A stretch of DNA of 64,000 nucleotides, taken from a virus. This document shows, piece after piece, positions 2,961 to 63,484 of this stretch (within the stretch, counting starts at the first letter, position 1; every line of letters starts with the position of its first letter). The notes below the pieces were generated by a model. The model was not told the origin of the DNA, did not search any database, and saw nothing but the letters and a program-made list of their open reading frames with translations. Position numbers and translations under genes: made by a program. Location of the stretch: positions 1-64,000 of the IMG/VR virus record IMGVR_UViG_3300020160_002696; one strand, 5' to 3'.

Positions 2961-3791
2961 ATGATAAAAAGATATAGACAATTTGTAAATGAGAGTATAG
3001 AAGATTATCTTCCAGCTAAAAAATCCTATACAAGAGATGATATTAGACAACTAAGAGATGATTGGGTTGAAGCTATAATAGAAATTTCAGAAGAAAATGG
3101 AGGTGCTAATTACTCAACATTGTGTAAGAGAAAAGATGATGATCCAGAACAAGATTATAGAGAATATCAAAAAGAAATGGATTCTAAAGGATTTAATTTT
3201 GATTTAATAAAGGAAATATTTTCAGAGGAATCTAACAAATTGATTGGTAAATGGGCATCAGATAGTTCTGATACAGATATATTTAGAGAGATTCATGAAA
3301 GTCCACTTGAAAATATGAATGGTGAAATTGATACATATTTATACTTTACTACTAAAAGATTAGGATTAGATTATAAGAAAGTTGAATTAGGTGGTCCATC
3401 ATGGTGTGGTATTGAGGAACCTGAAGAAGCAATTGTTAGATACTCATATGGTTATCATAAAACTAAATATGGTCAACTTATGATGGAACAATTAGGTATA
3501 ACCCAAGAAGATTTTGAATCATATGCAAGTAAAGGATTTTGTATACGTTTAATTGATAGTTGGAGTGATTTTTTCTCTGCTAGAATGGAAGATTATGTTA
3601 TTATAGAAGAAGATAGAATTGTTATATTTACTAAAAGACTATCAGATTATTTAGAGATTTCTATTGATGATGTTAATGAAAAATTAATTTGGTTTTTAAA
3701 CATATATAATTTTATTGAGTATGATATAACAGAAAATGAATTTCTTATTCATTGTGAATCTCTACAAAGATACTTTTTGAATGCTACTTAA
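2961..3791 (+). CDS. Acidic protein with capsid-targeting-like leader (MIKRYRQFVNES)
   Basis: Shared N-terminal motif; late promoter upstream. Confidence 0.6.
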   Translation: MIKRYRQFVNESIEDYLPAKKSYTRDDIRQLRDDWVEAIIEISEENGGANYSTLCKRKDDDPEQDYREYQKEMDSKGFNFDLIKEIFSEESNKLIGKWASDSSDTDIFREIHESPLENMNGEIDTYLYFTTKRLGLDYKKVELGGPSWCGIEEPEEAIVRYSYGYHKTKYGQLMMEQLGITQEDFESYASKGFCIRLIDSWSDFFSARMEDYVIIEEDRIVIFTKRLSDYLEISIDDVNEKLIWFLNIYNFIEYDITENEFLIHCESLQRYFLNAT

Positions 3792-3833
3792 ACTTTATAC
3801 TAACTTAATAGTATAATTCTAAAACAATTTTAT

Positions 3834-4943
3834 ATGATAATAAATTTAAAAAGTCAGACTGACCTTTCAGGTTTCTATGTAGTTTATGAAGGCTCAACAA
3901 ACTTGGAAAAACCAGGATGGTATGGAATTTCACACTTAATGGAACATTTAGTATGTAAATCATTTGACCACTTACAAGAAGATTTTGATAGAGATGGAAT
4001 AGACTGGAATGCATATACTTCATCTAATGAGATAGTATTCTATTTAACAGGACTTGATGAAAAAGTAAACAAATGGAAGAAGAAATTCTTAGACCTATTA
4101 ACAACTTTCAAAGTAACAAAAGAAGAATTTGAGAATGAGAGAAAAATAGTCCTTGAAGAATATATGGATTGTTTTAACGATCAAACACAATCACATATGT
4201 TAAACTTATCAAGAAAGTTATTTAATGATTATGATCCAATTGGATTGAAAAAAGACTTGGAAAATCTTAAATTTATGGATTGTCTTAACTTCTTTGAATT
4301 ACAATATTCAAAACCAACCAAAATTATAAATGTTTCAAAACATAAAGATTTTAATGATAAAGGTATTGACTTTCAAGAAAGACATATTACTAAAAGTTTA
4401 TCGTTTGGTAATCATAAGGTTGATTTAGAATTAAATAATGAATTTAAAGATAAGACATCTATTGCAATATTATCACCTGTAATTGAAGAAGACTTTGCAT
4501 ATGTTAACTTTATAAACTCTATGTTATCATTAGGACTTAAATCTCCTTTGTATCAAGAAGTCAGAGAGAAAAAAGGATTAGTATATTATATACATTGTTA
4601 TCAATCAAGAGTATGTGATAAAGGTATTAATGGTATATCCACTTTAACATCAAACAAAAACTTTAATGAAGTTGTTGAAGCAGTTAAGACTGTAATCACT
4701 AACCCTGATAAGTATTTAACTAAAGAAAGATTTAACCTTGTTAAGGAATACTACCAGGTAAGAAAACAAAAAGATGATATTAATAGATATGGTTCTGTTA
4801 ATCAGTGGATTAATCCAAAAGGTTGGTCTGTGTATGACATCTTAGATGAAGTAACCCTTAAAAAAGTTAGAGAAGTTTATGATAAGTATTATGACTTTGA
4901 TAAATTTTATATTTCATCTGATAAAAAAGAATTTAAAAAATAA
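3834..4943 (+). CDS. M16 family (insulinase) zinc metallopeptidase
   Basis: GISHLMEH (HxxEH), NAYTS, ERKIVLEE, SPLYQEVREKKGLVY. Confidence 0.9.
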   Translation: MIINLKSQTDLSGFYVVYEGSTNLEKPGWYGISHLMEHLVCKSFDHLQEDFDRDGIDWNAYTSSNEIVFYLTGLDEKVNKWKKKFLDLLTTFKVTKEEFENERKIVLEEYMDCFNDQTQSHMLNLSRKLFNDYDPIGLKKDLENLKFMDCLNFFELQYSKPTKIINVSKHKDFNDKGIDFQERHITKSLSFGNHKVDLELNNEFKDKTSIAILSPVIEEDFAYVNFINSMLSLGLKSPLYQEVREKKGLVYYIHCYQSRVCDKGINGISTLTSNKNFNEVVEAVKTVITNPDKYLTKERFNLVKEYYQVRKQKDDINRYGSVNQWINPKGWSVYDILDEVTLKKVREVYDKYYDFDKFYISSDKKEFKK

Positions 4944-4946
4944 TAT

Positions 4947-5672
4947 ATGTTAATTCCATATATTGGTGAAAAGACAAAATTTTCACAATTTATAACACCA
5001 AACATTCCAACTGACATATCTACTTATGTAGAACCATTTGGAGGTATGTTTGGTGTTTTCTTTTCTTTAGACTTTGATAAATATGCACATGTTGACTTTA
5101 TTTATAATGATATTAACAACTTAAACTATAATTTATTCAATCAGTTACAGAATAATAAAGATTTTATAGACTTGGTTAAATCTACCAAAGTAGATGAAGA
5201 ATTTTATAGATTTTCACTGAAAGGAATTATTACTACAAAAGATGATGTTCTATTGGCATTACAATGGTTAGTAATTTTGACTTGTTCTAATCCTTATGAA
5301 ATTGGTCAGGATTGTTGGAAAGGTGACAGAGATTTTGAAATATTCAAAATGAAACATAGTGCATATAAACCAAAGATAGATAGAATTACAAGTATTTATA
5401 GTGCTGATTATAAAGATATTATTAATAAGTATGATTCACCTGAGACATTCTTCTATGTTGATCCACCATATAAAGGTAAAGAGAAGTATTATATAAATCA
5501 TGAGTTTGGAACTGATTCACATAAAGAATTAGCAGAAATGTTAAATAACATTCAAGGTAGATTTTTACTAAGCTATTATGATTTTGATGGACTGAGAGAA
5601 TTGTATCATAATTGTAGATTTGAATTTAAGAAAACTATAATGGGAACAGAGTGGATAATTATGAACTACTAA
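4947..5672 (+). CDS. DNA adenine methyltransferase (Dam/D12 family)
   Basis: PYIGEK, YVEPFGG, YNDIN, FYVDPPY. Confidence 0.9.
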   Translation: MLIPYIGEKTKFSQFITPNIPTDISTYVEPFGGMFGVFFSLDFDKYAHVDFIYNDINNLNYNLFNQLQNNKDFIDLVKSTKVDEEFYRFSLKGIITTKDDVLLALQWLVILTCSNPYEIGQDCWKGDRDFEIFKMKHSAYKPKIDRITSIYSADYKDIINKYDSPETFFYVDPPYKGKEKYYINHEFGTDSHKELAEMLNNIQGRFLLSYYDFDGLRELYHNCRFEFKKTIMGTEWIIMNY

Positions 5673-5961: not shown

Positions 5962-5997
5962 ATTATTATAATAAAAATTATAAAATAAGTTTAAAAA

Positions 5998-6024: not shown

Positions 6025-6026
6025 TT

Positions 6027-7019: not shown

Positions 7020-7736
7020 TTATAATTGTTTAGTTAGTTCAATGTATAATTTTTCCATACCAGTTGTCGCTGGTTCTTGGATATGTTTAAATTCTAATTC
7101 TCTGAACTCAGGAACATAAAAATCTTTATCTCCTGGGTCCACATAGTAAATTAAAGTATTGTATTTTGTAAGAAAAGGAATTTCATTTGCAGGTGAAACT
7201 TGCATAGAAGTTCCAATAACAATACAGATGTCACATTCTTCTGCTGCCTTTACTGCATTATTTACATTATCTTCATTAAGACCTTCACCAAACCAAACAA
7301 TGTGTGGTCTCATTTGAGAACCTTTTTCACATTTGTCACCAAGGTTTAAATCTTCTGTCCAATCATAAACTAATTTAGAATCAAGAGTTGATCTAACCTT
7401 AGTTAACTCACCATGTAAATGTATAACATTTGTAGAACCTGCTCTTTCATGTAAATCATCAACATTTTGTGTTGCAATGGTTACATCAAAATATTCTTCA
7501 AGTTTGGCAAGTAATTCATGTGCCTTATTTGGCTGTACTGTTTTAAGTTGTTTTCTTCTTTCATTGTAGAATTCTAATACAACTTCTTTATTTCTTCTCC
7601 AAGCATCTATGGTGGCAACATCTTCAATCTTGAAGTTGTTCCATAAGCTATCCTTGGAATCTCGGAAAGTTTCCACACCACTTTCTTTAGAAACTCCTGC
7701 ACCTGAGAATACTAATATTTTTTTTCTGTCTGTCAT
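7020..7736 (-). CDS. cobB: NAD-dependent protein deacylase (Sir2/CobB)
   Basis: SGAGVSKESGVETFR, TQNVDDLHERAG, HLHGEL, RPHIVWFGE, IGTS. Confidence 0.95.
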   Translation of the reverse strand: MTDRKKILVFSGAGVSKESGVETFRDSKDSLWNNFKIEDVATIDAWRRNKEVVLEFYNERRKQLKTVQPNKAHELLAKLEEYFDVTIATQNVDDLHERAGSTNVIHLHGELTKVRSTLDSKLVYDWTEDLNLGDKCEKGSQMRPHIVWFGEGLNEDNVNNAVKAAEECDICIVIGTSMQVSPANEIPFLTKYNTLIYYVDPGDKDFYVPEFRELEFKHIQEPATTGMEKLYIELTKQL

Positions 7737-13230: not shown

Positions 13231-14646
13231 ATGTCAAATATAATAAACTTAACTTGGAATGGTGCAACTGATGACAATGGTATATCAGGTTATCAAATTC
13301 AATGGAGAACATCTACAACATCACCTTGGTCTCAACCAATTTTAGTTAATCATAATCCTAATTCTCCAGGAAACAATTTAATATCTGGTGGTGGTAGTTA
13401 TAGTCATACTATAACTCAAGTACGTGATCATACATTTAGAATAAGAATAATAGATAGTGTAGGTCAATTTAGTGGTTATAAAGAAATTTCAGTACCTGTT
13501 GATAGTTCCACTATATTAATTTCAAGTCAAGGTATAGCACTTGGAAACAATTTAGTATGTACTTCAAATGCATTAAATCCAATAAATCCTATATTACTTA
13601 AAGATAATGGTGTAATAACTAGTACAATAACAGATACTTTAACATTTGTAAAAAATGTTGATGATAGTACATTTGATGGACAAAACAGATTTTGGAGAAT
13701 ATTATTGAATACAATAAGTTATAAATGTAAAATAGAACCATCAGGTAAGATTGTATCACATGAACAATGTTCCTCTAATATTAGAACATTTAATATATCA
13801 AGTCAAGGTTATGATTCAAATATAACAAATGGTCAAATATGTGTAGCAGACTTAAATAATACAATATATTTCAATAATGAATTACAAATTGGTACTATAG
13901 TTTATAATACTTTGAATGATAATGGTACTTTATCAGGTCCATTTATTGGTATTAATAGATATTATTTAATTAGTGATAATGATTTTTACTATATTATTCA
14001 AATACAAAATAATGGTAGTGTATCATCTATTCAAGATTATACTGCAGTCTGTCAGTTAGATGATCCAAATAATGTTATTGTTACTTGTTGTTTTGTAAAA
14101 GGAACTAAAATAACAATGTTTGATTATACAACTAAAAATATTGAAGATGTTAAAATTGGTGATATTGTAATAACTTATAATGAAGAAACTAAATTACAAG
14201 AACCAGGTGAAGTAACAAATATAGCAAATCCTGTAAAAAGTAATATAGTTGAATATGAATTATCAAATGGTGTGTTAATAAAATCAACTACTTGTCATCC
14301 TTATTGGGTTGTTAATAAAGGTTGGTCATCATTTAATAAATCATTAACTAAAGAATTGTATGATTTTAATGTAGAACAAATAGAAGAGAGTGATGTTTTA
14401 CTTACTATAGATAATAAAGAGGTTGTTGTTGATAAAATAACTGAACTAATAACTAAAGAAGTTGCTACATATAATTTAGAAATATTGGGTAATCATACAT
14501 ATTATGCAAATGGTATTTTAGTTCATAATAAAACTGCTGTTCCTCCTGCACCAAACAGGTATGATGAATTTGGTAATCAAACATCTGCTTGGACTACATG
14601 GAATAACTTGTATGGTACTACAGCAACTTGTTATGCAGAACCATAA
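13231..14646 (+). CDS. FN3-like + Hint-domain putative virion protein
   Basis: N-terminal INLTWNGATDDNGISGY (FN3-like); Hint domain from CFVKGT to VHN. Confidence 0.8.
   Translation: MSNIINLTWNGATDDNGISGYQIQWRTSTTSPWSQPILVNHNPNSPGNNLISGGGSYSHTITQVRDHTFRIRIIDSVGQFSGYKEISVPVDSSTILISSQGIALGNNLVCTSNALNPINPILLKDNGVITSTITDTLTFVKNVDDSTFDGQNRFWRILLNTISYKCKIEPSGKIVSHEQCSSNIRTFNISSQGYDSNITNGQICVADLNNTIYFNNELQIGTIVYNTLNDNGTLSGPFIGINRYYLISDNDFYYIIQIQNNGSVSSIQDYTAVCQLDDPNNVIVTCCFVKGTKITMFDYTTKNIEDVKIGDIVITYNEETKLQEPGEVTNIANPVKSNIVEYELSNGVLIKSTTCHPYWVVNKGWSSFNKSLTKELYDFNVEQIEESDVLLTIDNKEVVVDKITELITKEVATYNLEILGNHTYYANGILVHNKTAVPPAPNRYDEFGNQTSAWTTWNNLYGTTATCYAEP
14089..14529 (+). other. Hint (intein-like / BIL-type) autoprocessing domain, no endonuclease
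   Basis: Block A CFVKGTKI, KNIEDVKIGD, block B TTCHPYW, block F/G YNLEILGNHTYYANGILVHN; +1 residue is Lys. Confidence 0.9.
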
Positions 14647-20138: not shown

Positions 20139-20783
20139 ATGGCAATACCTACATATACAAGAGAACAATTAATAACATTAATATCAACAAAATTGGCAGG
20201 TTCTCCTAATACAATAGATGCAGTTGAACATAGAGAACTTGAAACTGCTATAGTAAATGCTATTTATGGACAAATAGGTGATATTAAAGAAATTTCATGT
20301 AATACTACTTATATAACAAATAACTTTAAAACAGGTACTAATTTAATTGATGAAGGTTTGGGACTTCCATCAGGTGAAAGATATGGTTGGGCTATATGTA
20401 ATGGTAAAAATGGAACAGTAGATAAAAGAGGTAATGTTTCTATAGGTTATGATCCTTCAAGTTATGCAACACTTGCTTCTACTCAGTCAGGTGGTGGTAC
20501 TACACCTTATAAACAAGGTGGTCTAAAAACAGTTACATTAACAATTGATCAAATGCCACCACATAGTCATACACGTCCCAGAGGTAATGATAATAATTTA
20601 GGTGGTGGAACAAATCAGTATGGTTGGCAAGCAATTGATGATTTGTTTGGTAGCTATGCAACAAACACCACAGGAGGTGCTGGATCTACATCAACTGGTA
20701 ATACAACTGGAGGTTCAACCAATGCGCATGAAAACATGCAACCTTACATAGTTACTTTATTTATTCAGAGGATTCCTGTTTAA
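20139..20783 (+). CDS. Tail collar / baseplate-fibre-like protein
   Basis: GDIKE...GWAICNGKNGT.D.RG...GG.KTVTLTIDQMPPHSH...AHENMQPYIV. Confidence 0.75.
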   Translation: MAIPTYTREQLITLISTKLAGSPNTIDAVEHRELETAIVNAIYGQIGDIKEISCNTTYITNNFKTGTNLIDEGLGLPSGERYGWAICNGKNGTVDKRGNVSIGYDPSSYATLASTQSGGGTTPYKQGGLKTVTLTIDQMPPHSHTRPRGNDNNLGGGTNQYGWQAIDDLFGSYATNTTGGAGSTSTGNTTGGSTNAHENMQPYIVTLFIQRIPV

Positions 20784-21483
20784 AAAGTAGTAAATATCCA
20801 ATTTTACCGGCTTCATCCTTTGAATAGTGACCCATTGCTTCTAACTTGGTTTCATCACCAGTTAGTTTAATGTTTCTTAACTTTTGTTTACCCAATATAC
20901 GTTTATCTCCTTTACAAGTCTTACAAGGAGTTAAACCAACTTTTCCCTGACCCTGACAAAATGAACATTTGTTACCATTGTAGTCTTTACCACTACCTTC
21001 ACAGAAATCACAACCATCATCAGCATCAAAGATATGTAATACCTTACCATCATTATCTTTAATGATAATTTTAGATGATAAATCTTTTCCAGATCCATCA
21101 CAAGTCTTACACATTACCCATCTTTCATATTCAATTTTCCCATCAAAAGTATCATCTACCTTGATGTAAATATTGAACACATCATTCTTTTTGAACTTCT
21201 CTAATTTATCCTTAGTGTCATCAAAATTGAAATTAAAATCTGTTTCTAATAACTCATAATACTCATTGTAGTTATTACCATATCTACTTTTCATATCATA
21301 AGCCTCTCTTTCTTCACCACAAAGAATATCATATGCTTCTGTTAAATCACCAAATACAATTGAATCACCACCTTTATCAGGGTGGTGAGTAAAGGAAAGT
21401 TTATAGTAAGCTTTCTTTATCTCTTTTTCAGTAGAGGTATTTATAACTCCAAGTAAAGCATAATAGTTTTTATTTAGATTCAT
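20761..21483 (-). CDS. dnaJ: DnaJ-like co-chaperone
   Basis: J domain with HPD, followed by four CxxCxG(xG) zinc-finger motifs. Confidence 0.85.
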   Translation of the reverse strand: MNLNKNYYALLGVINTSTEKEIKKAYYKLSFTHHPDKGGDSIVFGDLTEAYDILCGEEREAYDMKSRYGNNYNEYYELLETDFNFNFDDTKDKLEKFKKNDVFNIYIKVDDTFDGKIEYERWVMCKTCDGSGKDLSSKIIIKDNDGKVLHIFDADDGCDFCEGSGKDYNGNKCSFCQGQGKVGLTPCKTCKGDKRILGKQKLRNIKLTGDETKLEAMGHYSKDEAGKIGYLLLFKQESSE

Positions 21484-25989: not shown

Positions 25990-26379
25990 TTATTCTAAAC
26001 CATATTCTGATTTTATCTCATCAAATAATTCTGAGTAATCATCATCACTCATATCTTTATCATAAGTACTTTTATACCAGCTAATCATTTCTCCAATAAC
26101 AACATCTTGTGCTTCACCATTATTGTGGTCAATATACCAATCATATTCTGAATCATAATCTTCTTCCCAATCAGGATCTACCCATTCCATAATTTCAAGA
26201 TCATATCTAGAAGCAACTTCATTATCAGAATATTCTTCTTTTATTCTTGTAATTGCCAAATCTAAGTCAAATTGACCTGTAGATGTTTCTTGTTTAGTAT
26301 CATCTTTGTCATCAAATCCTAATACTGGGTTAATGTTTTCATCATCACTGATGTCTTCAAATGTTTTTATGTATTTCAT
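25990..26379 (-). CDS. Acidic protein with capsid-targeting-like leader (MKYIKTFED)
   Basis: Shared N-terminal motif. Confidence 0.65.
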   Translation of the reverse strand: MKYIKTFEDISDDENINPVLGFDDKDDTKQETSTGQFDLDLAITRIKEEYSDNEVASRYDLEIMEWVDPDWEEDYDSEYDWYIDHNNGEAQDVVIGEMISWYKSTYDKDMSDDDYSELFDEIKSEYGLE

Positions 26380-26386: not shown

Positions 26387-26866
26387 TTATTTATGTTTTC
26401 CTTCTAATATCATTATATCAAACTCACTATCTTTCATAGCAAGTGCAAATGTGTGTCCTAATTGTTCTACTTTATGTTGAACATCTTGTGCAACCTCCAT
26501 AAACCCATAAGTCTTGGAAGTAGGTATTCCAAATGCTCTTCCATTTCTTTGTTGGTCAGCAGTCAATATATCATATGTTTCTCTAAATCTTATTATATAA
26601 CCTTTGTAATAACCTTTTATATCTTTAATATTACCTGCTGCAGTTCTATCTTCATGTTCTTGATATAAATCATCAAAACTTTTATCAGATGTTCTAACTG
26701 CATATAAATCTCCACTCTCATCTTCTAAATTCCAACGTCTTTGTAAATGATAGTTTATTGTATAAGTAAGATTATGGTCTCCAAACTCAGTTAGTAAAAA
26801 TCTTAGTTTATCTTCATCTTCAAATATATCATTTGATAAACTCTCTGTAAACTTTCTCATTCTCAT
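26387..26866 (-). CDS. Protein with capsid-targeting-like leader (MRMRKFTES)
   Basis: Shared N-terminal motif. Confidence 0.65.
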   Translation of the reverse strand: MRMRKFTESLSNDIFEDEDKLRFLLTEFGDHNLTYTINYHLQRRWNLEDESGDLYAVRTSDKSFDDLYQEHEDRTAAGNIKDIKGYYKGYIIRFRETYDILTADQQRNGRAFGIPTSKTYGFMEVAQDVQHKVEQLGHTFALAMKDSEFDIMILEGKHK

Positions 26867-27825
26867 TATTTCAATTTTATATGTATATTTAACCAGAATG
26901 ATTGGGCTTTAACACTTATTAAAACTTTATCAGACCATTTTTTACTTAATATCCAGTTACTAAAGTTACCTTTAATATTAAATAATTCTCCTTCATCTAA
27001 TTTACCATTATCCCATTTACCAATACCATAATAACCAAATGATAAAACTTTATCAACTAATGTTGGTTTTGACCTTTGTTCATGATAACCTGGTGTAAAA
27101 TCTTTCATATCTGTTTTTATCTTACCTAATAAAAGAATATCTTGATATGATAAATTAACTAACTCTTTTTTCAAAGAAGCTGCAGATTTTAAGTCTAATT
27201 GAACAATCCATTTAATTACAGATTGTGATAATTTGAATTGACCAATTGGTAATGATTCTTCATAAGAAATACCATACTCAAATTTACCATCACATTTAAT
27301 ACCAAAGTATAAATCAACTTCATTTTTTGCATAGTCAATCATCTCTACATATTTAGATAAAGATTTGAATCTACTAAATACTATCTTAACATCATCAGAA
27401 ATCAATTTTGGATAGTGATAGAACAACAAAAACTCATCAGGTGACTTATCTAATGTTGGTTGTCCATTCTTCTGTCCTAAGGCAGTTAATGCTTTCAAAA
27501 AAGAATTAAATATACCTTTTCCTGCTAATGTAATTTCAGATTCTAAAAGGTCTTCAACTTCTGTAGAAGCAGATACTTTAGCTTCTGGATGTTCTTGTAA
27601 ACCATTTTGTTGATAATCTTCAATTTGTTTCTTTATATCAGCTTGTTCTCTTGAATCTAATAGGTTAATAGCATTTGATAGTTTAATATCAGGTGTTATT
27701 TCACCTAAAAATCTATTTACTATATTTTTAATGTATTCATCATCATATAATGATTCAACCCATTCTCCTATAGAGTTGAAGTCTTCTTTACTTTCTTTGA
27801 TGAATTCTAAATATTTCTTTATCAT
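26866..27825 (-). CDS. Protein with capsid-targeting-like leader (MIKKYLEFIKES)
   Basis: Shared motif; TAATATATA at 27830-27838. Confidence 0.65.
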   Translation of the reverse strand: MIKKYLEFIKESKEDFNSIGEWVESLYDDEYIKNIVNRFLGEITPDIKLSNAINLLDSREQADIKKQIEDYQQNGLQEHPEAKVSASTEVEDLLESEITLAGKGIFNSFLKALTALGQKNGQPTLDKSPDEFLLFYHYPKLISDDVKIVFSRFKSLSKYVEMIDYAKNEVDLYFGIKCDGKFEYGISYEESLPIGQFKLSQSVIKWIVQLDLKSAASLKKELVNLSYQDILLLGKIKTDMKDFTPGYHEQRSKPTLVDKVLSFGYYGIGKWDNGKLDEGELFNIKGNFSNWILSKKWSDKVLISVKAQSFWLNIHIKLK

Positions 27826-27880
27826 AGTCTATATATTAAATTATATGATTACTTTTTTACTTTGGTTGTGTACATGTATT

Positions 27881-32703: not shown

Positions 32704-32717
32704 TATTTATATTATTT

Positions 32718-36574: not shown

Positions 36575-36596
36575 AAATCCTCATTACTGAGGATTT
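36575..36596. terminator. Terminator hairpin overlapping a stop codon
   Basis: aaatcctca-ttac-tgaggattt. Confidence 0.65.
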
Positions 36597-36991
36597 GTTT
36601 GTAACATCTTAACTATTTCCATAAAGGCCTTTTCTGTACCTTTAATAGTATATTCATATAAACCATATGCATTTACTTCTGTAGGTGCTTGGTCATAGAA
36701 TTTAACACCATTGAGAACTTCATCTATATCATTTCGGTATTTAAGATAAAAATCATATATATCAGCATCATTTATAAATCCTTCAACTTTAACATCTTCT
36801 GGATTCTTTTCAAATGATTCAACAAAGGAAGCAAACTCTCCACCACTTTTAGTAATAGTATTATCAATCATCTTTTTTACTTCTTCTTTAAGTTCAGTAA
36901 ACTTATTTGAATCTAATGATTTAACACCTGGTGTCTCATCAATATTGGCATCATCTGCCTCATTTACAAATTGTGTATATCTTTTTATCAT
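36584..36991 (-). CDS. Protein with capsid-targeting-like leader (MIKRYTQFVNEA)
   Basis: Shared motif; TAATATATA at 36996-37004. Confidence 0.65.
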   Translation of the reverse strand: MIKRYTQFVNEADDANIDETPGVKSLDSNKFTELKEEVKKMIDNTITKSGGEFASFVESFEKNPEDVKVEGFINDADIYDFYLKYRNDIDEVLNGVKFYDQAPTEVNAYGLYEYTIKGTEKAFMEIVKMLQTNPQ

Positions 36992-37009
36992 AATCTATAT
37001 ATTAACTTT

Positions 37010-46575: not shown

Positions 46576-46589
46576 TTTATATATAAGTT

Positions 46590-47975
46590 ATGATAAAAAG
46601 ATACTTACAATTTATTAAAGAACAACAATTGTCTTTATTCCCTATGGATGAAGTAATGAAACCTGTTGAAGAAATAAAAACATATAGACTTGAAGATGAT
46701 AAGATTGAAGAACTATTTGTTGAAATGAGTGATGAGGGATATACAATTGATATTGAAAGAGGTTTTGTAGAAACTGAATTTAGATATAGTGGTGGAAAGT
46801 ATCACAATGATTATAAAGTATTTGGACAGAAATTAGTTAAAGGTGAGGTAACTCCTGCATACTGGGTAAATATATATGATACAAAACCAACAAGTGATGA
46901 TGTTACTGATGTTGTTTTAACTGCAATTGATTATTTTGAAGACCTTGGTTTTGAAGCTAAAGTATATGAAAATAAGAGTGAGGTAAATTTAGATGAATTA
47001 TTAATACAAGGTGGGTTCTTTTTGAAAGATGAAAGTGGTGATATAACTAAAGATATACAAATAGATGATAATATCGGCTTATTTGTAATGGATAAGAAAG
47101 AAACAAAAATTGATGCTAAAGAACTTTGTGAGTATTATGAATGGTTGTCTGAAAAAGATAAAGATACTTTTATAGAAGGTGATGATATTTATATTGTTGT
47201 TGGAATGGAAGATTTGGCTGATATATTATTAGGTGATGAAAAAAGTTATAAAAGTCAATTAATTGATGGTATAGATGATGATTACTATTATAGTTCAGAA
47301 TATTATCCAGATACAAATTCTTTACTTAGTCATGATTTGAATAAAGAAAATGAAGTTCTATTAGTTAAAGCTTTAATTAAAGAATATGGTGGATTAGATG
47401 AACTTGTTAAAGAAGCAGATAATGATAAATTAGAAGGATTAACAGAAGATGAAGTTATAGAATATCTAACTAAAGAAAGATATTACTATACATTAATTGA
47501 GTTATGTAAAAATTCTGATTTAGTACAAGATATTAAACAAACTTATGGTGATTATGCAGTAAGTGCTCATCAAGATGCAAACTATCAAGAACTTGTTAAT
47601 GAGTTTGATAATATTGTTGGTGATAGAAGTTATGGTGCAGAATTATCATATAGTAAATATGATAAAGAAGTAGAAGTTAAAAAGACTTATACTAAACAAG
47701 ATGGTACAAGAGAAACACATACTTATCCAGAAGTTCAAACATTTTATAAAATAAAGTTTGATAATAAATGGCTTGAGAACTTTGATTATGACTTCTTACA
47801 AAATGAATCACTTTATGATATATTTAGAGAGTATTGTCAGGCTTGGTTAGGAACTTTTAAGTTTGAACCTCACTTTTCTGATTATGGTTCAGTTGATTTA
47901 AAAGAATTTAATGGTGATGTTACTTGGATGTTAAATAACAAACTTGGTATAGAAAATAAAAGAAATCCTTCATAA
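46590..47975 (+). CDS. Acidic protein with capsid-targeting-like leader (MIKRYLQFIKE)
   Basis: Shared motif; TTTATATATA at 46576-46585. Confidence 0.65.
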   Translation: MIKRYLQFIKEQQLSLFPMDEVMKPVEEIKTYRLEDDKIEELFVEMSDEGYTIDIERGFVETEFRYSGGKYHNDYKVFGQKLVKGEVTPAYWVNIYDTKPTSDDVTDVVLTAIDYFEDLGFEAKVYENKSEVNLDELLIQGGFFLKDESGDITKDIQIDDNIGLFVMDKKETKIDAKELCEYYEWLSEKDKDTFIEGDDIYIVVGMEDLADILLGDEKSYKSQLIDGIDDDYYYSSEYYPDTNSLLSHDLNKENEVLLVKALIKEYGGLDELVKEADNDKLEGLTEDEVIEYLTKERYYYTLIELCKNSDLVQDIKQTYGDYAVSAHQDANYQELVNEFDNIVGDRSYGAELSYSKYDKEVEVKKTYTKQDGTRETHTYPEVQTFYKIKFDNKWLENFDYDFLQNESLYDIFREYCQAWLGTFKFEPHFSDYGSVDLKEFNGDVTWMLNNKLGIENKRNPS

Positions 47976-49021: not shown

Positions 49022-49469
49022 TTACATGAAAGGTTTTAATGCCTCTTCATCAAGTTCTATTCCTAAGATAAACTTAAACTCACCACCTACTTTTTTAACA
49101 TCTGATGATAAAGTACCATTATACATTATTTCTTTACCATTTTCTTTAACTAAAATACTTGCTAATAATTTATATGTTCTCTTATCTGTTTCAGTTGAAC
49201 CTTCATTATTATCTGCTTTTCTTATCCATTCATCATATTGGTCAAATTTATCTTGTTTAAATCTAACTTCTTTATATACATCTAACTCTACCAAGTATTG
49301 AAAATTTTCATCTTTGGTCCAAGTTTTTAGTTTACGGTCATATTTAAGATATTTCTCAGTAAAGTTTGTTTGATAATCTTCTATTTCTCTTAGACATTGT
49401 ATCTAATTCTTCTTTAGTAAGTCTTGTTAACTTTCTTGATTTATGTTGATTAAAATTTTGTATCTTCAT
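49022..49469 (-). pseudogene. Gene interrupted by a +1 frameshift (MKIQNFNQH...EELD / QCLREIEDY...LKPFM)
   Basis: ATG overlaps the upstream stop; frame 0 stops after 37 codons; the +1 frame is open through 49022. Confidence 0.55.
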
Positions 49470-49699
49470 TATTCTTTAGTTATTTTATAACCTAATTTTT
49501 TTATCATTTCAGTTACATCTAATATTAGATTTGTGGCTAAATCATGTGTCATTACAAATCTACCATCATTATCATCTATAATAGATTTTATTTCACTTGT
49601 ATAGTTCTTTCTAAAAGAAACATAGTCTTTATTAGAACTATCAAATTTATTTAGTATTTCCTTGTTATCTATAACCTCATTAAATTTCTTTATCTTCAT
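49469..49699 (-). CDS. Small protein with capsid-targeting-like leader (MKIKKFNE)
   Basis: Shared motif; TAATATATA at 49705-49713. Confidence 0.65.
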   Translation of the reverse strand: MKIKKFNEVIDNKEILNKFDSSNKDYVSFRKNYTSEIKSIIDDNDGRFVMTHDLATNLILDVTEMIKKLGYKITKE

Positions 49700-49716
49700 A
49701 TTATTATATATTAAAA

Positions 49717-50355
49717 TTAATAAGCATAGTTTTTGGTAGGTTTTCTACATTTCAACTGAGACTTAACATTATTCATTTCATTTGTACCAAGTTCTAACTT
49801 AGCATTTTTTCTTTTCATAACTAAACCTTCATACATATCAATTTTTATCAAATCATTATATAAGTCTAAGAAACCACCATTGTAAGATTTTACTCTGTAG
49901 ATGTTTTCTGAAATACCATACAAGTGTTCTTTCTCACAATCTACTTGACCATATAAGTCATTTAAAATTGCAACTCTTTGTTCAAAAGTAGTTCCTACTA
50001 AATAGTTACCCTCAAGAACAAGAATATCAAAAATAACAAACTTATGATTAAATGGTCTACCAGTTTCATCATTCTGAGATTTGTTCATATACTCACCATT
50101 GATTACCATCCATTCACCATTACCTCTATACATAGAAGAAACTTCTTCATCTGTTATTCTGAAATTAGTAAGTCTTTGATTGTGTCTATTCATTACAATG
50201 TGTTTTTCACCATTTGTATAAATAGTAGTATTAGAACCATTAAGTTTTGGTTGTCCTAATAATGAGTCATTGTCCCAAAAAGTTAACTCGTCCGAAGGAA
50301 TTGCATTCTTTGGACGAGGTGGATAGATATAAATGAATTTTGAATATTGTGCCAT
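49717..50355 (-). CDS. Minimal ATP-dependent ligase-like nucleotidyltransferase
   Basis: Motif I QPKLNG, III INGEY, IIIa FVIFDIL, IV EGLVMK, V KCRK; no OB domain. Confidence 0.75.
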   Translation of the reverse strand: MAQYSKFIYIYPPRPKNAIPSDELTFWDNDSLLGQPKLNGSNTTIYTNGEKHIVMNRHNQRLTNFRITDEEVSSMYRGNGEWMVINGEYMNKSQNDETGRPFNHKFVIFDILVLEGNYLVGTTFEQRVAILNDLYGQVDCEKEHLYGISENIYRVKSYNGGFLDLYNDLIKIDMYEGLVMKRKNAKLELGTNEMNNVKSQLKCRKPTKNYAY

Positions 50356-51967: not shown

Positions 51968-51999
51968 CAAATATAAGATAAAATTTTAATATATACAAA
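51968..51999 (-). promoter_or_regulatory. Bacteroidota-type promoter with an oppositely oriented TAATATATA in its spacer
   Basis: TTTG-N20-TATATTTG; plus-strand TAATATATA at 51987-51995. Confidence 0.7.
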
Positions 52000-52000: not shown

Positions 52001-52684
52001 ATGAAACACTTAAAAAAGTTTAATGAAAGTAAATCAGAAATGCCATTGGAAGACTACTTTGTAGAATTTGTAGATGAAGGGTTTACTATTGAAAGAGAGT
52101 TAAATCAATTCAAACTTAAATATACTGGAGAATATGATTTTAGTCAAACACTTGAAATGTATAATGATGTAATCTCTAAATTACAAGCTTATGGTAGAGA
52201 TATAACTAAAACAGACTTATCATATAGAAAATCTGTTACAAATATTCTTATTGAAGTTAAGAATAATATTAAACCTAATGATGCTATTGAAATTACACTT
52301 AGAGGTGAAAAATTAAAACTAATACCACATGCTTATGCAGTATATGGTAGTCCACAACCTCAACAAAGTTATCATACTAATGATGCAGGTAGAACAGTAA
52401 AACTTGGTAAACCAAGACCACCATATGTTAATACTATAATATTATTCTGTAAAGATGAAAATAATAGAAACTATAATATAACTTGGGAAAATAGATATGG
52501 TAATGAACTTTCTAAAGAGGATATTAGAGCAAAAGTACAAAATACAAATATTAATATTGATTTAGAAAATGCTTCTAAAGTAATAGAAACTATCAAAAAG
52601 AATGAAATTGAGGCAAGATATGGAACTGAAATAATGCTTGATGTATTTACTGAAACAATTACTCCAGAATTACTTACTAGATAA
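52001..52684 (+). CDS. Protein with capsid-targeting-like leader (MKHLKKFNES)
   Basis: Shared motif; late promoter upstream. Confidence 0.65.
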   Translation: MKHLKKFNESKSEMPLEDYFVEFVDEGFTIERELNQFKLKYTGEYDFSQTLEMYNDVISKLQAYGRDITKTDLSYRKSVTNILIEVKNNIKPNDAIEITLRGEKLKLIPHAYAVYGSPQPQQSYHTNDAGRTVKLGKPRPPYVNTIILFCKDENNRNYNITWENRYGNELSKEDIRAKVQNTNINIDLENASKVIETIKKNEIEARYGTEIMLDVFTETITPELLTR

Positions 52685-55709: not shown

Positions 55710-56029
55710 ATTCCCAATTCTTTTAATTTTATATCTCTTGTATATACTACATAGTCTTCTGCTTGTGTAATGAAGTATTCATTCATTTCTTGTTCAGTAA
55801 AGTAATACCATTTTACTCTTTCTGAGTATGGTTTATTCCACCAATCTTTCTTATCAGATCCAAAAAATTCATCTTCAACACAGAAACCATAACCTTCTTT
55901 ATCAGTTGCAGCATTCCAAGTTAAGTCACCACAACCTTTTATCTTGTAGTGACTTTTTAGTTTTAATGTTTCATATTGTTTTATACAAACAACACTATCT
56001 CCCATTTCAAATCTATCTTCTTTATACAT
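55706..56029 (-). CDS. Hypothetical protein with C-terminal tag
   Basis: FEMGDSVVCIK; ends TRDIKLKELGI. Confidence 0.7.
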   Translation of the reverse strand: MYKEDRFEMGDSVVCIKQYETLKLKSHYKIKGCGDLTWNAATDKEGYGFCVEDEFFGSDKKDWWNKPYSERVKWYYFTEQEMNEYFITQAEDYVVYTRDIKLKELGI

Positions 56030-56612
56030 GGTGATCAACTTTAACAATTTCTCTTTTCTCCATTAATTGAAGTATTTCATTGATATGAAATGGTCTGAAC
56101 TCTTTGTGTGCATCAATACCAACATCCATTGATTTACCATAATCTGGAATGCTACCATGTGAGTGACCATAAAGATGAATTACACCTTTATGAGAACTTG
56201 GCCATACTCTGTGAGAATAGTGAGATAAGTGAAATTTGTTTTTTCCAATGTAACCTGTATAAGTATCTCTAACACTTACAAACAATTCAAATGGATCAAA
56301 TGATAATCTTTGTCTTCTTTCTTCATTGAATTCATCAAAAATTTCATCATGGTTTCCTTTTATTAAGTGAATAGTTTTACAGATTAAAGATTTTCTGAAA
56401 TCATACATTTTTTGTGGTGAACCAAAAGAGAAATCACCAAGATGATAAAGAATATCATCTTCTTTTACATATTTGTTGATAGTATCAATCAAACACTCAT
56501 TCATTTCCTGAACTGTTTTGAAAGTTCTGTAACCAGACTTCCATTTTGACAATTCTGGACCTGCAATTCCTGAGTGATGATAGTGTGTATCAGATGTAAA
56601 CCAAATGTTCAT
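56022..56612 (-). CDS. Calcineurin-like metallophosphoesterase
   Basis: FTSDTH, HLGD, GNHD, HY, GHSH, DVGID. Confidence 0.9.
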   Translation of the reverse strand: MNIWFTSDTHYHHSGIAGPELSKWKSGYRTFKTVQEMNECLIDTINKYVKEDDILYHLGDFSFGSPQKMYDFRKSLICKTIHLIKGNHDEIFDEFNEERRQRLSFDPFELFVSVRDTYTGYIGKNKFHLSHYSHRVWPSSHKGVIHLYGHSHGSIPDYGKSMDVGIDAHKEFRPFHINEILQLMEKREIVKVDHHV

Positions 56613-56667: not shown

Positions 56668-56704
56668 AAATAATATATATGTAATAATAAAATAGAAATA
56701 AAAT

Positions 56705-57211
56705 ATGAGATACTTAAAATTATTTGAAGATATAGTTCCTGCACATCAAAGTGGGTCCGAATATAGAAACAGAAATACTGATGAAACAACAGATGTTACT
56801 AAATTAGATAGTATACCACTTAGGTCACCAGTGTATCAAAAAGGTGAAATACTTATCTTTTCAGAGGGTAGAGATGTTGATTATGAATTTGCAGAAAGGT
56901 TATTAAAAAGGTTAGGTCTTAAATTGATAGGTGAACCTTATGATAGAGGATTTTTAGTTAAATGTGAGCCTGGTAAGGAAGTAGAAAGTGCCAAAATGGC
57001 AATTGCAAAATATCCTGATTTTTTTGATAGTTATGAAAGAGAAGATATTAGAATGCCTTATATATCAGATAAAGTTGATGTTTTAGTTGGAGAAGTTGAA
57101 GGTATAGTAGATTTCTTTGAAAGTACTTTACAAAGAAATGTAAATTCTACTAAATATAATAAGTATATTGATGATATAATAAATGAACTGGATAAGTTAA
57201 AAATAAATTAA
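56705..57211 (+). CDS. Protein with capsid-targeting-like leader (MRYLKLFED)
   Basis: Shared motif. Confidence 0.65.
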   Translation: MRYLKLFEDIVPAHQSGSEYRNRNTDETTDVTKLDSIPLRSPVYQKGEILIFSEGRDVDYEFAERLLKRLGLKLIGEPYDRGFLVKCEPGKEVESAKMAIAKYPDFFDSYEREDIRMPYISDKVDVLVGEVEGIVDFFESTLQRNVNSTKYNKYIDDIINELDKLKIN

Positions 57212-57213: not shown

Positions 57214-57534
57214 ATGAAACATATAAAAATATTTGAAGAGTTTAGAGAGAAAGTTGTAACTTTCACTAATAAAAGAAATCCAAGGTTAGTAATAAAAGTT
57301 ACTAAAACACCTGATGGTAGAATAACTAATATTGATAATCCAAATGGAATAAGATTTTGTTTCTCTGTAGGACAACTATTTAACAGAACTGCTGAGGTTT
57401 GGGCAAGTAATAATAACTACTTAATGGATGGACAAGATATGACACCAGAAGAGAAAATAATGGGAATTAAAGTATCTGATATACCACCAGGACATGAACT
57501 AAGAATGTTATATCCTGGAAAGTTTAAAAAGTAA
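57214..57534 (+). CDS. Protein with capsid-targeting-like leader (MKHIKIFEEF)
   Basis: Shared motif. Confidence 0.65.
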   Translation: MKHIKIFEEFREKVVTFTNKRNPRLVIKVTKTPDGRITNIDNPNGIRFCFSVGQLFNRTAEVWASNNNYLMDGQDMTPEEKIMGIKVSDIPPGHELRMLYPGKFKK

Positions 57535-57544: not shown

Positions 57545-58330
57545 ATGAAATACTTAAAATTATATGAAGAGTTTGTTAGTAAAGAAACTAAAGTAAACTG
57601 GGGAGAAGCTGAACTTGAAATCAAAGAAATGTTTAGAATCTTTAAAGAGTTAAAAGAAATACCAAATGAATTGACTGTTGATGGTGAGAAATTTAATATA
57701 GATAAATCTATCTTTGATGTTGAAGAACCTCAAGAGTTTGAACAACAAGTTGATGATATAAATGGTAAGCACACAGACTCTTCAAAGATTGGACCAACTG
57801 CAGATGAAATTCTATCAATGAAAGAGTTGACGGTTAGTGGTAAAAAGGTAGATGCAAAACCTTATTACAATTTTATTAAATTTTGTAAGAAGGTATTTTG
57901 GAAAGGTCAGAAAGTTCAATTAGATAAAACAACAATTCAAAAGTTAGCAGATGATTCACAATCAATAGGTAGAGGTGAATTTTCAAAATTCATAAAAGAT
58001 TCTAGTGAGTATCAAAGATTATCAAAAGCATATGATAATACTATGACTTTCTTGAAAGAAAAAGGAGCAGAAGATAAATTTAATACAACTGGTTTATTTA
58101 GTAAGTACCCGGATATCAATAAAAAAGACTACAATGACGCAGTTCATTACTTTATTTACTATGGCAAATCTTATTTATTCTTTGAAGAACAAATAAAGAA
58201 AGGTGGTAAAATGCCAATAACATCAGCAATTGAAATTTCAGGTAAATGGTATATTGTTGGTGGTAATAGAAGAATGAGTTTTTATGTATTAAGTGGTATA
58301 GACCCAGTGATATGGCTAACTAAGATTTAA
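57545..58330 (+). CDS. Protein with capsid-targeting-like leader (MKYLKLYEEF) and ParB/Srx-like C-terminus
   Basis: Shared motif; YIVGGNRRM. Confidence 0.6.
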   Translation: MKYLKLYEEFVSKETKVNWGEAELEIKEMFRIFKELKEIPNELTVDGEKFNIDKSIFDVEEPQEFEQQVDDINGKHTDSSKIGPTADEILSMKELTVSGKKVDAKPYYNFIKFCKKVFWKGQKVQLDKTTIQKLADDSQSIGRGEFSKFIKDSSEYQRLSKAYDNTMTFLKEKGAEDKFNTTGLFSKYPDINKKDYNDAVHYFIYYGKSYLFFEEQIKKGGKMPITSAIEISGKWYIVGGNRRMSFYVLSGIDPVIWLTKI

Positions 58331-60425: not shown

Positions 60426-60482
60426 AAAAAGAAAACCTCTTTTATAAGTAGGTTTAAAAACAAAAAATAAAAATTAGAAATT

Positions 60483-60653: not shown

Positions 60654-60731
60654 TAAGAATCTGTTTTTCCATATTTTGTAAAATATGGTGGTGGAAGTTG
60701 ACAGTACCAGTGTCGACCCTTTATAAAGTAA

Positions 60732-60755
60732 AAACCTCTAAGAAATTAGAGGTTT
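60732..60755. terminator. Bidirectional terminator
   Basis: aaacctctaa-gaaa-ttagaggttt. Confidence 0.75.
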
Positions 60756-61731: not shown

Positions 61732-61781
61732 ATATCTTATTTGTTTCTACAAAAGTACAAAAAAACTTTTATATATACACT

Positions 61782-62405
61782 ATGAAAATTAAAAAATTTG
61801 GTATTTTTTTAGAAAGTTTAGCAAGACCTGATAGTAGTTTAAAAACACTAAAGAGAACTAAAGAACTTAATGGTTCTGACTTTTTAGAGATATTAAATGA
61901 AAATTGTAAAAATTTCTCTTTTGATAATACACAACTTTGGAGGTCAAAAACAAAGAAATATAATTTAGAGTTATTTACACCTGCTCCAAGAAATGCAGAT
62001 CCTCTCGCATTTAAAGATTTCTTTAATGAAATTGAACATAATACAGAAGAATATCCAGTTGTTAGAAAAAACTCTTTAATTGGTGGAACTGATAAAGAAA
62101 TTTGTAAGTTTTTAGTTGGTGGTGATATGTATTTAGTTATACCATTTGATGATAGTGAAATAGTATTTTGTCCAATTATGGATATGTGGGCAATGTCAGA
62201 TGATAGAAAAAACTTAACAGGTAAAAATATGTTGGTTAAAGGTAAACCAATAAGTAAAGATGATTTTACAAAAGTTTCTTATACTAAAAACTTTAAATAC
62301 TTAGATAAAGGTTGGAATGGTAAAGGTTGTGAGTTCTTTATATCAAGTCCTTGTTTATTAGTTCATGAAAGTAAAATAGATTGGTTAAAGAAAAACTTAA
62401 AATAG
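61782..62405 (+). CDS. Protein with capsid-targeting-like leader (MKIKKFGIFLES), possible ART-like fold
   Basis: Late promoter at 61768-61777; LWRS...RKNSLIG...CEFFI. Confidence 0.5.
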   Translation: MKIKKFGIFLESLARPDSSLKTLKRTKELNGSDFLEILNENCKNFSFDNTQLWRSKTKKYNLELFTPAPRNADPLAFKDFFNEIEHNTEEYPVVRKNSLIGGTDKEICKFLVGGDMYLVIPFDDSEIVFCPIMDMWAMSDDRKNLTGKNMLVKGKPISKDDFTKVSYTKNFKYLDKGWNGKGCEFFISSPCLLVHESKIDWLKKNLK

Positions 62406-62432
62406 AGAACATGTAGTTTACTATATATGTTT

Positions 62433-63146
62433 ATGAAATATAATATAGTAACAATTGACCCCAGTTTAATCTCTACTGCATTAGTAGTATCATCAGGTGA
62501 TACTTTTAAAATGTATAACTATTGTAGAGAATCAAGTGCCTTTGGTAAAAAAGGAATCACTAAATGGTTTGGTATGGCTGAACAACACATAACTTATAAA
62601 TTTATTGAATATAGAAGTTTTAAAGACTATTCAGAAGGTGAGTTAATAAAATTAAAAGATTATGATAAAATCAGTGATATGATTATTACTGATATTAAAG
62701 AAAATATTGATTCAAATAAACCAACTAAAATTGGTATAGAAGGATATTCATTTTCATCTACTGCAGGTGACATAATTGATTTAGTTACATTTTCAACCAT
62801 TTTAAGAAAGAAACTATTTGATTTAATATCAGAAGACATTACTATACTTTCTCCTTCAACCTTGAAGCTGGAATCTTGTAAATTGACTTATCCACCAATT
62901 AATATTGGTATTAAAAAAGAAAAATGGGTATATAGGAATAATATAGGAATATCAGGTGGTTCATTTACAAAAAGAGAAATATTTTTAACAATTATAGAAA
63001 ATAATAATTGGTCTGACTACTGGACAAAACATTGCAAATTATCTAAGACTGATATTTTAGGAATTGCAAAGATACCAAAACCTTATGAAGATGTGAATGA
63101 TGCATTTTTAATTTATAAATACTTAGAAAAACAAAACCCATCATAA
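62433..63146 (+). CDS. RuvC-like (RNase H fold) nuclease / Holliday junction resolvase
   Basis: TIDPSLISTA, IGIEGYS, PSTLK, EDVNDAF. Confidence 0.7.
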   Translation: MKYNIVTIDPSLISTALVVSSGDTFKMYNYCRESSAFGKKGITKWFGMAEQHITYKFIEYRSFKDYSEGELIKLKDYDKISDMIITDIKENIDSNKPTKIGIEGYSFSSTAGDIIDLVTFSTILRKKLFDLISEDITILSPSTLKLESCKLTYPPINIGIKKEKWVYRNNIGISGGSFTKREIFLTIIENNNWSDYWTKHCKLSKTDILGIAKIPKPYEDVNDAFLIYKYLEKQNPS

Positions 63147-63159
63147 GATGGGTTTTGTT
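63130..63159. terminator. Bidirectional terminator with the same core as 44094-44119
   Basis: aacaaaacccatc-ataa-gatgggttttgtt. Confidence 0.8.
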
Positions 63160-63484
63160 ATATCTTTAATATTAAACTAATTACTTTATCAACCTCTGAT
63201 ATGGAATATATTCCTAAAGTATCAGTAATATTAAACTCTTCTTTTACTATAGATAAATTTTTATCAATCAATGATATTGAAATAAAAGGTAGATTTTTTT
63301 CTTCTCTTAATCCTTCAAGAAAAAATTTTACATAGTTATGATTATAAGTAATACCTATTAATTCACGATTCTTCTGTAATTCATTAACAATTTTATGTAA
63401 AATATCTACCTCTTCTTTTTCTAATTGATTTGGATTCCAACTCCCCATTGTATCAAACATTTCATTAAACTTCCTTAGTTTCAT
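63158..63484 (-). CDS. Protein with capsid-targeting-like leader (MKLRKFNEM)
   Basis: Shared motif. Confidence 0.6.
   Translation of the reverse strand: MKLRKFNEMFDTMGSWNPNQLEKEEVDILHKIVNELQKNRELIGITYNHNYVKFFLEGLREEKNLPFISISLIDKNLSIVKEEFNITDTLGIYSISEVDKVISLILKI

Follow-up and report, generated by a model that had tools for sequence, protein, structure and literature searches.

Short N-terminal peptides resembling the capsid targeting sequence of phage T4 on numerous proteins of an uncultured low-GC phage: a possible signal for loading into the head

About a quarter of the genes on the virus record IMGVR_UViG_3300020160_002696 (IMG/VR) begin with a peptide which resembles the N-terminal head tag, or capsid targeting sequence (CTS), of phage T4. 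The window, i.e., the whole stretch of DNA which was analysed here, comprises the first 64 kb (64,000 nucleotides) of this record of 86,850 bases. In the following, the peptide is called the tag or leader, and the remainder of each protein the body. On balance, and with considerable reservations, we regard the tag as a probable signal for the loading of proteins into the capsid, which would afterwards be trimmed off.

Sequences and relatives

The record has a GC content of 27% and a completeness of 15% (CheckV). An alternative genetic code was considered and was not needed, since translation table 11 gives 95% coding sequence; the stop codons were TAA (83), TAG (10) and TGA (7). Open reading frames (ORFs) were called by a crude greedy procedure, in which the longest ORFs with an ATG start were chosen at a minimum length of 40 aa; this yielded 100 ORFs for the record and 942 for LR745206.1. 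The latter is the complete sequence (634,780 bp) of an uncultured phage and the sole relative at the DNA level in GenBank, with 75.8% identity over 2.1 kb. The matching stretch is present in sequencing runs of freshwater, wastewater and estuary samples from several studies, with shares below 0.2 being disregarded. Two further sequences were used for comparison, G006, a complete relative of 243 kb, and G008, a contig of 208 kb (56% complete) with a more classical T4-like capsid gene. The clade which carries the tag consists of uncultured low-GC phages of 240–635 kb with a T4-type capsid protein and a head protease.

Occurrence of the tag

An earlier note on the window had listed 14 N-termini, and translation at each of their coordinates reproduced the quoted residues. 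Ten of the 14 starts are on the strand implied by the ORF list; the starts on the minus strand are 26379, 26866, 27825, 36991, 49699, 49469 and 63484. In 13 cases the start is the first ATG of its ORF, with lengths of 76–461 aa; the start at 49469 heads just 37 aa and was not counted. As a total, the figure of about 14 proteins was too low, since 24 of the 100 ORFs on the whole record were tagged when read by eye, 11 of them in the 22.85 kb by which the record extends past the window.

Class B of the tag can be written as MK[YHI][IL]K[KLT][FY][NE]E, with a version which is shorter by one residue (e.g., MKIKKFNE), and class A as MIK[RK]YxQF[VI]xE. Applied as regular expressions to the same data from which they had been derived, class B matched 15 of 100 N-termini on the record, none of 406 internal methionines and a mean of 0.05 over 200 shuffles, and class A matched four N-termini and nothing in the controls. 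An independent test was made with a weight matrix which was trained on LR745206.1 alone (threshold of at least 10 bits) and which misses the tag variants of eight residues and most of class A. With this matrix 10 of 100 ORFs on the record were tagged, compared to 0.0 in shuffles and none of 340 internal methionines. For LR745206.1 at least 107 of 942 ORFs were obtained (shuffles 0.3; internal methionines one of 3,020), for G006 15 of 293 ORFs (shuffles 0.22) and for G008 none of 251 ORFs. Tag counts are lower bounds, because 11 matches of the regular expressions in LR745206.1 were at internal methionines which are probably the true starts. An estimate by an expectation-maximization mixture (16.6% tagged in LR745206.1) was dropped, since shuffled N-termini still gave 7.8%; the fixed-matrix counts with their shuffle controls were used in its place.

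In viral contigs of IMG/VR, more than 119 stretches matched a DNA pattern which encodes precisely MK[HY]xKKFNE (nine residues). Among 82 matches in 80 viral loci, 76 were the first ATG after an in-frame stop codon; four of the other six had an in-frame ATG 2–18 codons upstream and two were located at the edge of a locus. The GC contents of the 80 loci were 23–35%, with one at 42%, and the proteins encoded downstream were diverse. In 596 Gb of bacterial and archaeal genomes the pattern occurred in 10 stretches, all of them on contigs of metagenome-assembled genomes and four from one bin. The tag is almost confined to viral contigs. A compositional artefact of a genome with 27% GC is ruled out by the values close to zero in shuffles and at internal methionines together with these 10 cellular matches. 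Chance origin is excluded, and the genome-wide motif count which the earlier note had proposed places the tag far above chance.

Conservation of the tag

The leader, whose conservation among orthologs was a decisive point for the earlier note, is present in the families of the 461-aa protein which starts at position 46590 (g46590) and of the 227-aa protein which starts at position 52001 (g52001), as well as in homologs from LR745206.1. For g52001 37 homologs were found; 12 of them, with identities down to 38%, were aligned with the query, and M1, K2, H3, L4, K6, N8 and E9 do not vary in this alignment, in which indels occur in the residues right after the leader. The family of g46590 has 128 representative relatives, and in an alignment of 85 sequences with a mean column identity of 20% the only columns conserved to at least 90% are F8, E11, Y233, F339, P427 and N441, the first two of which belong to the leader. 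The motif [YWF]xxF[ILV]xE is found in the first 20 residues of 64 of the 88 full-length representatives of this family; past residue 40 there were three matches in 34,989 residues. Body homologs in LR745206.1 were detected for 12 of the 24 tagged proteins, and all 12 homologs are tagged. Since the class sometimes differs between homologs (e.g., MKIKKFNEEF and MIKKWNQFNES), the classes of the tag look interchangeable. The tag is the best-conserved part of otherwise fast-evolving families.

The constraint acts on amino acids and not on RNA, because synonymous codons are used with the same freedom in the tag and in the gene bodies: in 107 leaders the share of AAA among Lys codons was 0.74 (bodies 0.74) and that of GAA among Glu codons was 0.71 (bodies 0.72). 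A signal at the level of DNA or RNA, or a recombination site for the exchange of cassettes, was also considered and is ruled out by this body-like use of synonymous codons.

Models of the two proteins were obtained with AlphaFold2 (AF2), with predicted local distance difference test scores (pLDDT) of 91.0 for g46590 and 86.5 for g52001; only leader and linker had scores below 50 (residues 1–16 and 18–27 of g46590, residues 1–10 of g52001). In the model of g46590 residues 1–27 are unstructured and the fold begins at about residue 30. The tag is thus predicted to be outside the fold.

Late promoters

The record contains the strict late motif T[AT]ATATATA at 40 sites, 34 of them outside called ORFs, the non-coding share being 4.6%. 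It is separated from the start codon by either 4–5 nt or 18–29 nt, also in front of fibre-like genes and giant genes which look structural. In LR745206.1, 180 of the 217 occurrences counted near starts are within 45 nt before the ATG. According to the earlier note, nearly all tagged genes lie directly behind a TATATA late motif or in an operon behind one. This was borne out, since 13 of 24 tagged genes and 17 of 76 others have the motif in the 60 nt before their start (Fisher p 0.005), and the remaining 11 tagged genes are downstream in same-strand runs. The same co-occurrence holds in LR745206.1 (odds ratio 4.8, p 1.5e-12), where the motif precedes 51 of 107 tagged genes, versus 133 of 835 others, within 60 nt. 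The reverse trend is shown by a host-type motif, TAnnTTTG, which precedes enzyme genes; in LR745206.1 it peaks in the 15 nt before starts (46 versus about 10 per bin) and stands upstream of four of 107 tagged genes versus 103 of 835 others (p 0.006). Judging from the promoter motifs, the tagged proteins would be made late, during assembly of the prohead.

Because the late motif ends 4–5 nt before the ATG at window positions 2948, 14673, 24943, 27838, 37004, 43874, 46577, 49713, 51987 and 61769, the late mRNAs should be nearly leaderless at these sites. The form TTTG...TAnnTTTG (e.g., TATCTTTG) was observed in front of untagged genes, which often encode enzymes, at 45398, 48369, 50355, 51949, 56612 and 61731 (all on the minus strand) and at 1876. 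We take this to be the form of housekeeping promoters of the Bacteroidota, and TAnnTTTG promoters would point to a host from this phylum.

Comparison with T4 and other systems

The T4 leader MKTYQEFIAE, as quoted in the earlier note, is correct: IPIII and IPII translated from AF158101 begin with it and continue with Ala. According to PMC9026906, the first ten residues of the T4 CTS suffice for incorporation, residues 4 and 7 have a role in targeting and residues 8 and 10 in processing, and gp21 cleaves after L/I-x-E. The internal proteins of T-even phages are described in PMC3012670 as diverse defence proteins which have the CTS as their sole common part.

The tag described here likewise comprises about ten residues right after the initiator Met, and stands before otherwise unrelated bodies which are encoded by late genes. 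Class A has Y5, F8, I/V and E at the spacing of T4, shifted by one residue, and where T4 has its processing site the residues are I/V-x-E followed by S, A or Q. In class B position 4 is aliphatic (L/I) and position 7 is F/Y; in the weight matrix of LR745206.1 (942 ORFs) the values are 0.58 for L and 0.28 for I at position 4, and 0.48 for F and 0.34 for Y at position 7. There are also differences, in that the main class, MK[HY]LKKFNE, ends one residue before the T4 tag, several classes exist which look interchangeable, and some of the tagged proteins are recognisable enzymes. The scale differs as well: T4 itself has three CTS proteins, compared to 24 on the 87-kb record and at least 107 in the 635-kb relative.

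A T4-type head is encoded by relatives within the clade. A match to the Gp23 family above the Pfam cut-off was found in 17 of 25 large tag-bearing contigs and in five of the six which are at least 90% complete. In LR745206.1, genes for a portal (phrog_213, E 2e-59), a head maturation protease (phrog_207, E 3e-30) and the capsid protein are adjacent, and GEFDHP of the protease aligns with GELNHP, the His motif, of T4 gp21. In the capsid proteins of the clade I-N-E is kept (...INE, then NAY...), with no further [LIVF]-x-E between it and the fold; this position would fit a propeptide cut as in T4.

Two observations may be added. A 425-aa protein at window 44121–45398 (−) matches phrog_4191, annotated as 'peptidase' (E 7e-77), and no Pfam family; its homolog in LR745206.1 (202934–204292) is encoded a short way downstream of the capsid gene and is flanked by a tagged gene on either side. 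Many tiny ORFs (59–120 aa) in the related records G001, G003, G004, G021 and others match short pieces of the Gp23 profile above the Pfam cut-off.

Among other known systems, the cargo-loading peptides of encapsulins are also short and conserved, are attached by a flexible linker and bring diverse cargo into a shell of the HK97 fold. They differ in that they are usually C-terminal, bind the shell directly and are not removed, and encapsulins are cellular, not viral. The phiKZ-like phages (phiKZ, 201phi2-1 and SPN3US, with gp175/gp245 proteases) are likewise giants, in which many head-internal proteins are cut after Glu by a diverged homolog of gp21; for 201phi2-1, processing of 19 of 89 virion proteins is reported in the available text of PMC9026906. 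Their cut motif is S/A-x-E, their set of head genes is different, and the same text does not describe a conserved short N-terminal cargo tag for them. For phage Atu_ph07 (490 kb, with T4 core genes), mass spectrometry detected 112 virion-associated proteins beyond the predicted structural ones, as stated in the accessible part of PMC6102473, and particles with more than 100 proteins therefore appear possible. This phage has a host from another phylum and belongs to another clade, and no tag is described in that part of the publication. Among the publications listed in searches of the literature, no account of such an expansion of the CTS was found. Literature on the capsid targeting sequence which deals with huge or metagenomic phages was not among them, nor did searches with the tag strings reveal a phage context.

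Proteins behind the tag

The statement that the rest of each protein is unrelated is mostly correct, since comparison of residues 15 to end of the 24 proteins, all against all with blastp, gave no pair below E 6.5e-4. It does not hold for a subset: a module of helix and strand just past the linker (DIxxYFxxFxDxGY-like, detected by profile) is common to g46590, g52001 and about 20 small proteins of LR745206.1. That the bodies are often acidic was confirmed; 18 of 24 have a pI below 6, and the median is 4.8 versus 5.7 in the other ORFs.

For ten tagged proteins of the window no Pfam family was found above the cut-off, and matches to PHROGs were weak. The best of these PHROGs matches was that of g52001 to the head-tail adaptor phrog_615 (E 1.8e-4), and none of them was relied on. 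Among the 107 tagged proteins of LR745206.1, the domains recognised by Pfam were two NUDIX, one head domain of PolyA_pol/CCA-adding enzymes, a nucleotide cyclase, NFACT-R, an M15 peptidase and DUF6576. The latter (E 8e-11) covers residues 11–41, straight after the tag, of the protein encoded at 133378–134001, and this catalogued short domain may overlap the region of tag and linker. Families of tail, replication or capsid-shell proteins were not matched by any of the 107 proteins in Pfam or PHROGs. The tag is an N-terminal add-on, since the known domains begin at residue 39, 55 or 23. About 95% of the tagged proteins match no family, and their designation as potential anti-defence or takeover effectors in the earlier note is for this reason pure inference.

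The model of g46590 had no match in the PDB at E 0.001 or better and one in BFVD, an uncharacterised phage protein (E 2e-5, TM 0.29–0.35); for the model of g52001 the PDB yielded nothing but alpha/beta proteins of de novo design (E 0.003 or weaker). These fold matches are uninformative on function. In several tagged proteins of G006 (MKYIKKYQLFE...; encoded at 3119–4206, 31368–32992 and 166903–167067) the tag is followed by LSxxNLTELPxLP, which is leucine-rich-repeat-like.

Head loading and alternative explanations

In the mechanism which we favour, the tag would be a linear address of 8–12 residues, in which basic residues are followed by one which is aromatic or aliphatic, then by Phe or Tyr three positions on, and finally by Glu. 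A flexible, often acidic linker would tie it to late proteins which are otherwise unrelated. In analogy to the T4 CTS, the tag would bind to the scaffolding core of the assembling prohead, and the protein would be enclosed. The gp21-family head protease of these phages would then remove the tag after Glu; the proteins released in this way would stay inside the capsid and would probably be delivered into the host together with the DNA. Binding to the prohead core, cleavage, packaging and ejection, and likewise any role against host defences, are inferred.

Loading into the head with subsequent trimming would explain the match in sequence, the tether, the late timing, the restriction to a clade and the lack of tags on tail and replication proteins, and it was refuted by none of the computational tests which could have done so. 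The proposal of injected head cargo in the earlier note is in agreement with the orthologs, the constraint at the protein level, the fold, the promoter, the head genes and the CTS positions; the cargo status of the whole set, however, is uncertain, because the repertoire of the relative is so large (at least 107 proteins).

Several points weigh against head loading. The tagged set of at least 107 of 942 ORFs includes a CCA-adding enzyme, two NUDIX proteins and a cyclase, which look like housekeeping proteins. The tagged family of the 461-aa protein was found in one of 50,697 GenBank phage records, that of the uncultured LR745206.1. Class B lacks Ile8 and has F-N-E, L-F-E or I-F-E, and its putative cut site is not uniform, since Glu is at position 8, 9 or 11; it appears compatible with a relaxed [LIVF]-x-E rule, which differs from the T4 motif. 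The tagged bodies are mostly acidic, whereas IPII and IPIII of T4 are basic. Part of the tagged set is, judging from the shared profile, a true paralog family. The match of LR745206.1 to Pfam S77 is below the cut-off (20 bits, E 1e-4), and a search for Peptidase_S77 on the 15%-complete record, which is without a head module, found none, so that the protease is known from relatives alone. The stock of Atu_ph07 was purified with polyethylene glycol. Finally, an M16 (insulinase-type) peptidase of 369 aa is encoded at window 3834–4943 (+), between the tagged gene at 2961 and a gene for a Dam-type methylase. Its HxxEH motif is intact (HLMEH); the enzyme is probably active, and it is possible that it processes the tag or clears the peptides, in place of the head protease or in addition to it.

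This peptidase leads to an explanation of lower, yet appreciable probability, namely that the tag is used for docking or processing by another late machine, which could be the M16 metallopeptidase (in the manner of mitochondrial processing and presequence peptidases), a chaperone, another site in the virion or a compartment made by the phage. The M16 protein is 78% identical in LR745206.1, where it has the same neighbours and a different tagged gene just upstream; G006 has two copies, and in the tag-poor G008 (56% complete) it was not found. A DnaJ-domain protein encoded at window 20761–21483 (−) would be a candidate for a chaperone. The tag is also basic and amphipathic, and a repertoire of at least 107 proteins, some of them enzymes, exceeds any documented CTS set. 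On the other hand, head loading is the simpler explanation for the match to the T4 CTS positions, the T4-type head module and the late timing. The association of M16 with the tag is drawn from three genomes, with G008 just 56% complete, and of a compartment system no sign was found.

It is improbable that the tag is an element for the expression or stability of late genes, i.e., a start for mRNAs which are leaderless or devoid of a Shine-Dalgarno site, or an N-terminal degron which times turnover. Such a function would suit the mRNAs almost without 5' leader, since eight of the 14 genes with an ATG 4–5 nt past the late motif are tagged, and also the early promoters, which look like those of Bacteroidota; Bacteroidota are not known to use Shine-Dalgarno sites. 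However, the other six genes with equal spacing are untagged, and 11 tagged genes have an internal position in an operon. Synonymous codon positions of the tag vary as freely as those of gene bodies, the constraint being on the amino acids Phe and Glu, and the pattern is nearly absent from the 596 Gb of cellular genomes, low-GC genomes and Bacteroidota included.

The shared helix-strand profile of g46590, g52001 and about 20 proteins of LR745206.1, and the tandem runs of tagged genes, might suggest that the tag is merely the inherited N-terminus, without a separate function, of one large paralog family which has diverged past recognition; this is very unlikely, as most bodies share nothing, homology past the first approximately 12 residues across the members was not found for the 24 bodies, tags precede unrelated domains (CCA-adding enzyme, cyclase, NFACT-R, NUDIX, M15 peptidase), the two AF2 models and the Pfam domains point to unrelated folds, and neutral inheritance predicts neither that the tag outlasts the bodies in conservation nor that it is outside the fold.

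Tagged and neighbouring genes of the window

Class A tags are found on four ORFs of the window. The ORF at 2961..3791 (+) encodes 276 aa and starts with MIKRYRQFVNE, followed by S; the late motif (2948–2956) is 4 nt upstream and the gene for the M16 peptidase is next. An ORF of 319 aa at 26866..27825 (−), with MIKKYLEFIKE followed by S and the late motif at 27830–27838 (4 nt upstream), is the first gene of a run of three tagged genes; its leader has K, Y, E, F, I and E in common with the T4 CTS at equal spacing. The second gene of this run (26387..26866, −; 159 aa) has the short class B leader MRMRKFTES, and the third (25990..26379, −; 129 aa) the class B leader MKYIKTFED, behind which the sequence is acidic, and a homolog in LR745206.1 which starts with MKYLRKYNES. 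The 135-aa ORF at 36584..36991 (−) begins with MIKRYTQFVNE, then A, 4 nt behind the late motif at 36996–37004, and its ortholog in LR745206.1 starts with MIKKYLQFIKEA. The fourth class A tag, MIKRYLQFIKE followed by Q, is that of g46590 (46590..47975, +; 461 aa), again 4 nt behind the late motif (46577–46585); this is the protein with the family of 128 representatives.

The remaining tags are of class B or related to it. An ORF of 76 aa at 49469..49699 (−) has the short leader MKIKKFNEV, with the late motif (49705–49713) 5 nt upstream; the basic ORF of 37 aa at 49356..49469 (−), starting with MKIQNFNQH, is a weak match and was left out of all counts. The gene of g52001 (52001..52684, +; 227 aa; MKHLKKFNE, then S) has the late motif (51987–51995) 5 nt upstream. 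A second run of three tagged genes begins with 56705..57211 (+; 168 aa; MRYLKLFED), 25 nt behind the late motif at 56671–56679, and is continued by 57214..57534 (+; 106 aa; MKHIKIFEEF), the body of which is basic (pI 9.8), and 57545..58330 (+; 261 aa; MKYLKLYEEF). The ORF at 61782..62405 (+; 207 aa) has a hybrid leader, MKIKKFGIFLE followed by S, and the late motif (61769–61777) 4 nt upstream. A run of four tagged genes ends with 63158..63484 (−; 108 aa; short class B, MKLRKFNEM); its first gene and the late motifs are outside the window, at contig position 67591. To the same run belongs an ORF of 725 aa, the 3' part of which is at 63498..64000 (−) and which starts with MKLAKYNQFLG at contig position 65675, outside the window.

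Other genes of the window code for a Toprim protein (1938–2945, +), a D12 adenine methylase (4947–5672, +), a SIR2-family protein (7020–7736, −; E 7e-45), a small ATP-dependent ligase-like protein (49717–50355, −) and a metallophosphoesterase (56022–56612, −). A 471-aa protein (13231–14646, +), encoded between two ORFs of about 1,800 aa, has a domain of the Hint/AXH type (AXH E 2e-12, PT-HINT E 2e-5).

Conclusions

As a tentative and rather doubtful generalization, phages of the Bacteroidota type with genomes of about 0.25–0.65 Mb may load about 100 proteins (at least 11% of the proteome) by means of interchangeable tags which can be read from the sequence, and may inject them. This 'injectome' could then be predicted from the genome. 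Dozens of acidic orphans would belong to it, together with leucine-rich-repeat-like proteins and, as enzymes, NUDIX hydrolases, a nucleotide cyclase and a CCA-adding enzyme; the M16 enzyme might clear or cut the tags as presequence peptidases of mitochondria do.

If the tag is a loading signal, N-termini would allow one to list the proteins which uncultured huge phages carry in their virions, and candidates for injected counter-defence and takeover proteins, most of them without a known family, would be pinpointed. The system of internal proteins of T4, which is known for few proteins, could then reach a major share of a proteome, and this would help to explain the extra genes and the capsid volume of huge phages. 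The tags could also act as handles for cargo loading in Bacteroidota phages. Should loading not be the function of the tag, a motif of 8–12 residues, which is the best-conserved feature of more than 100 late proteins, would still mark a pathway of sorting or processing which has not been described.

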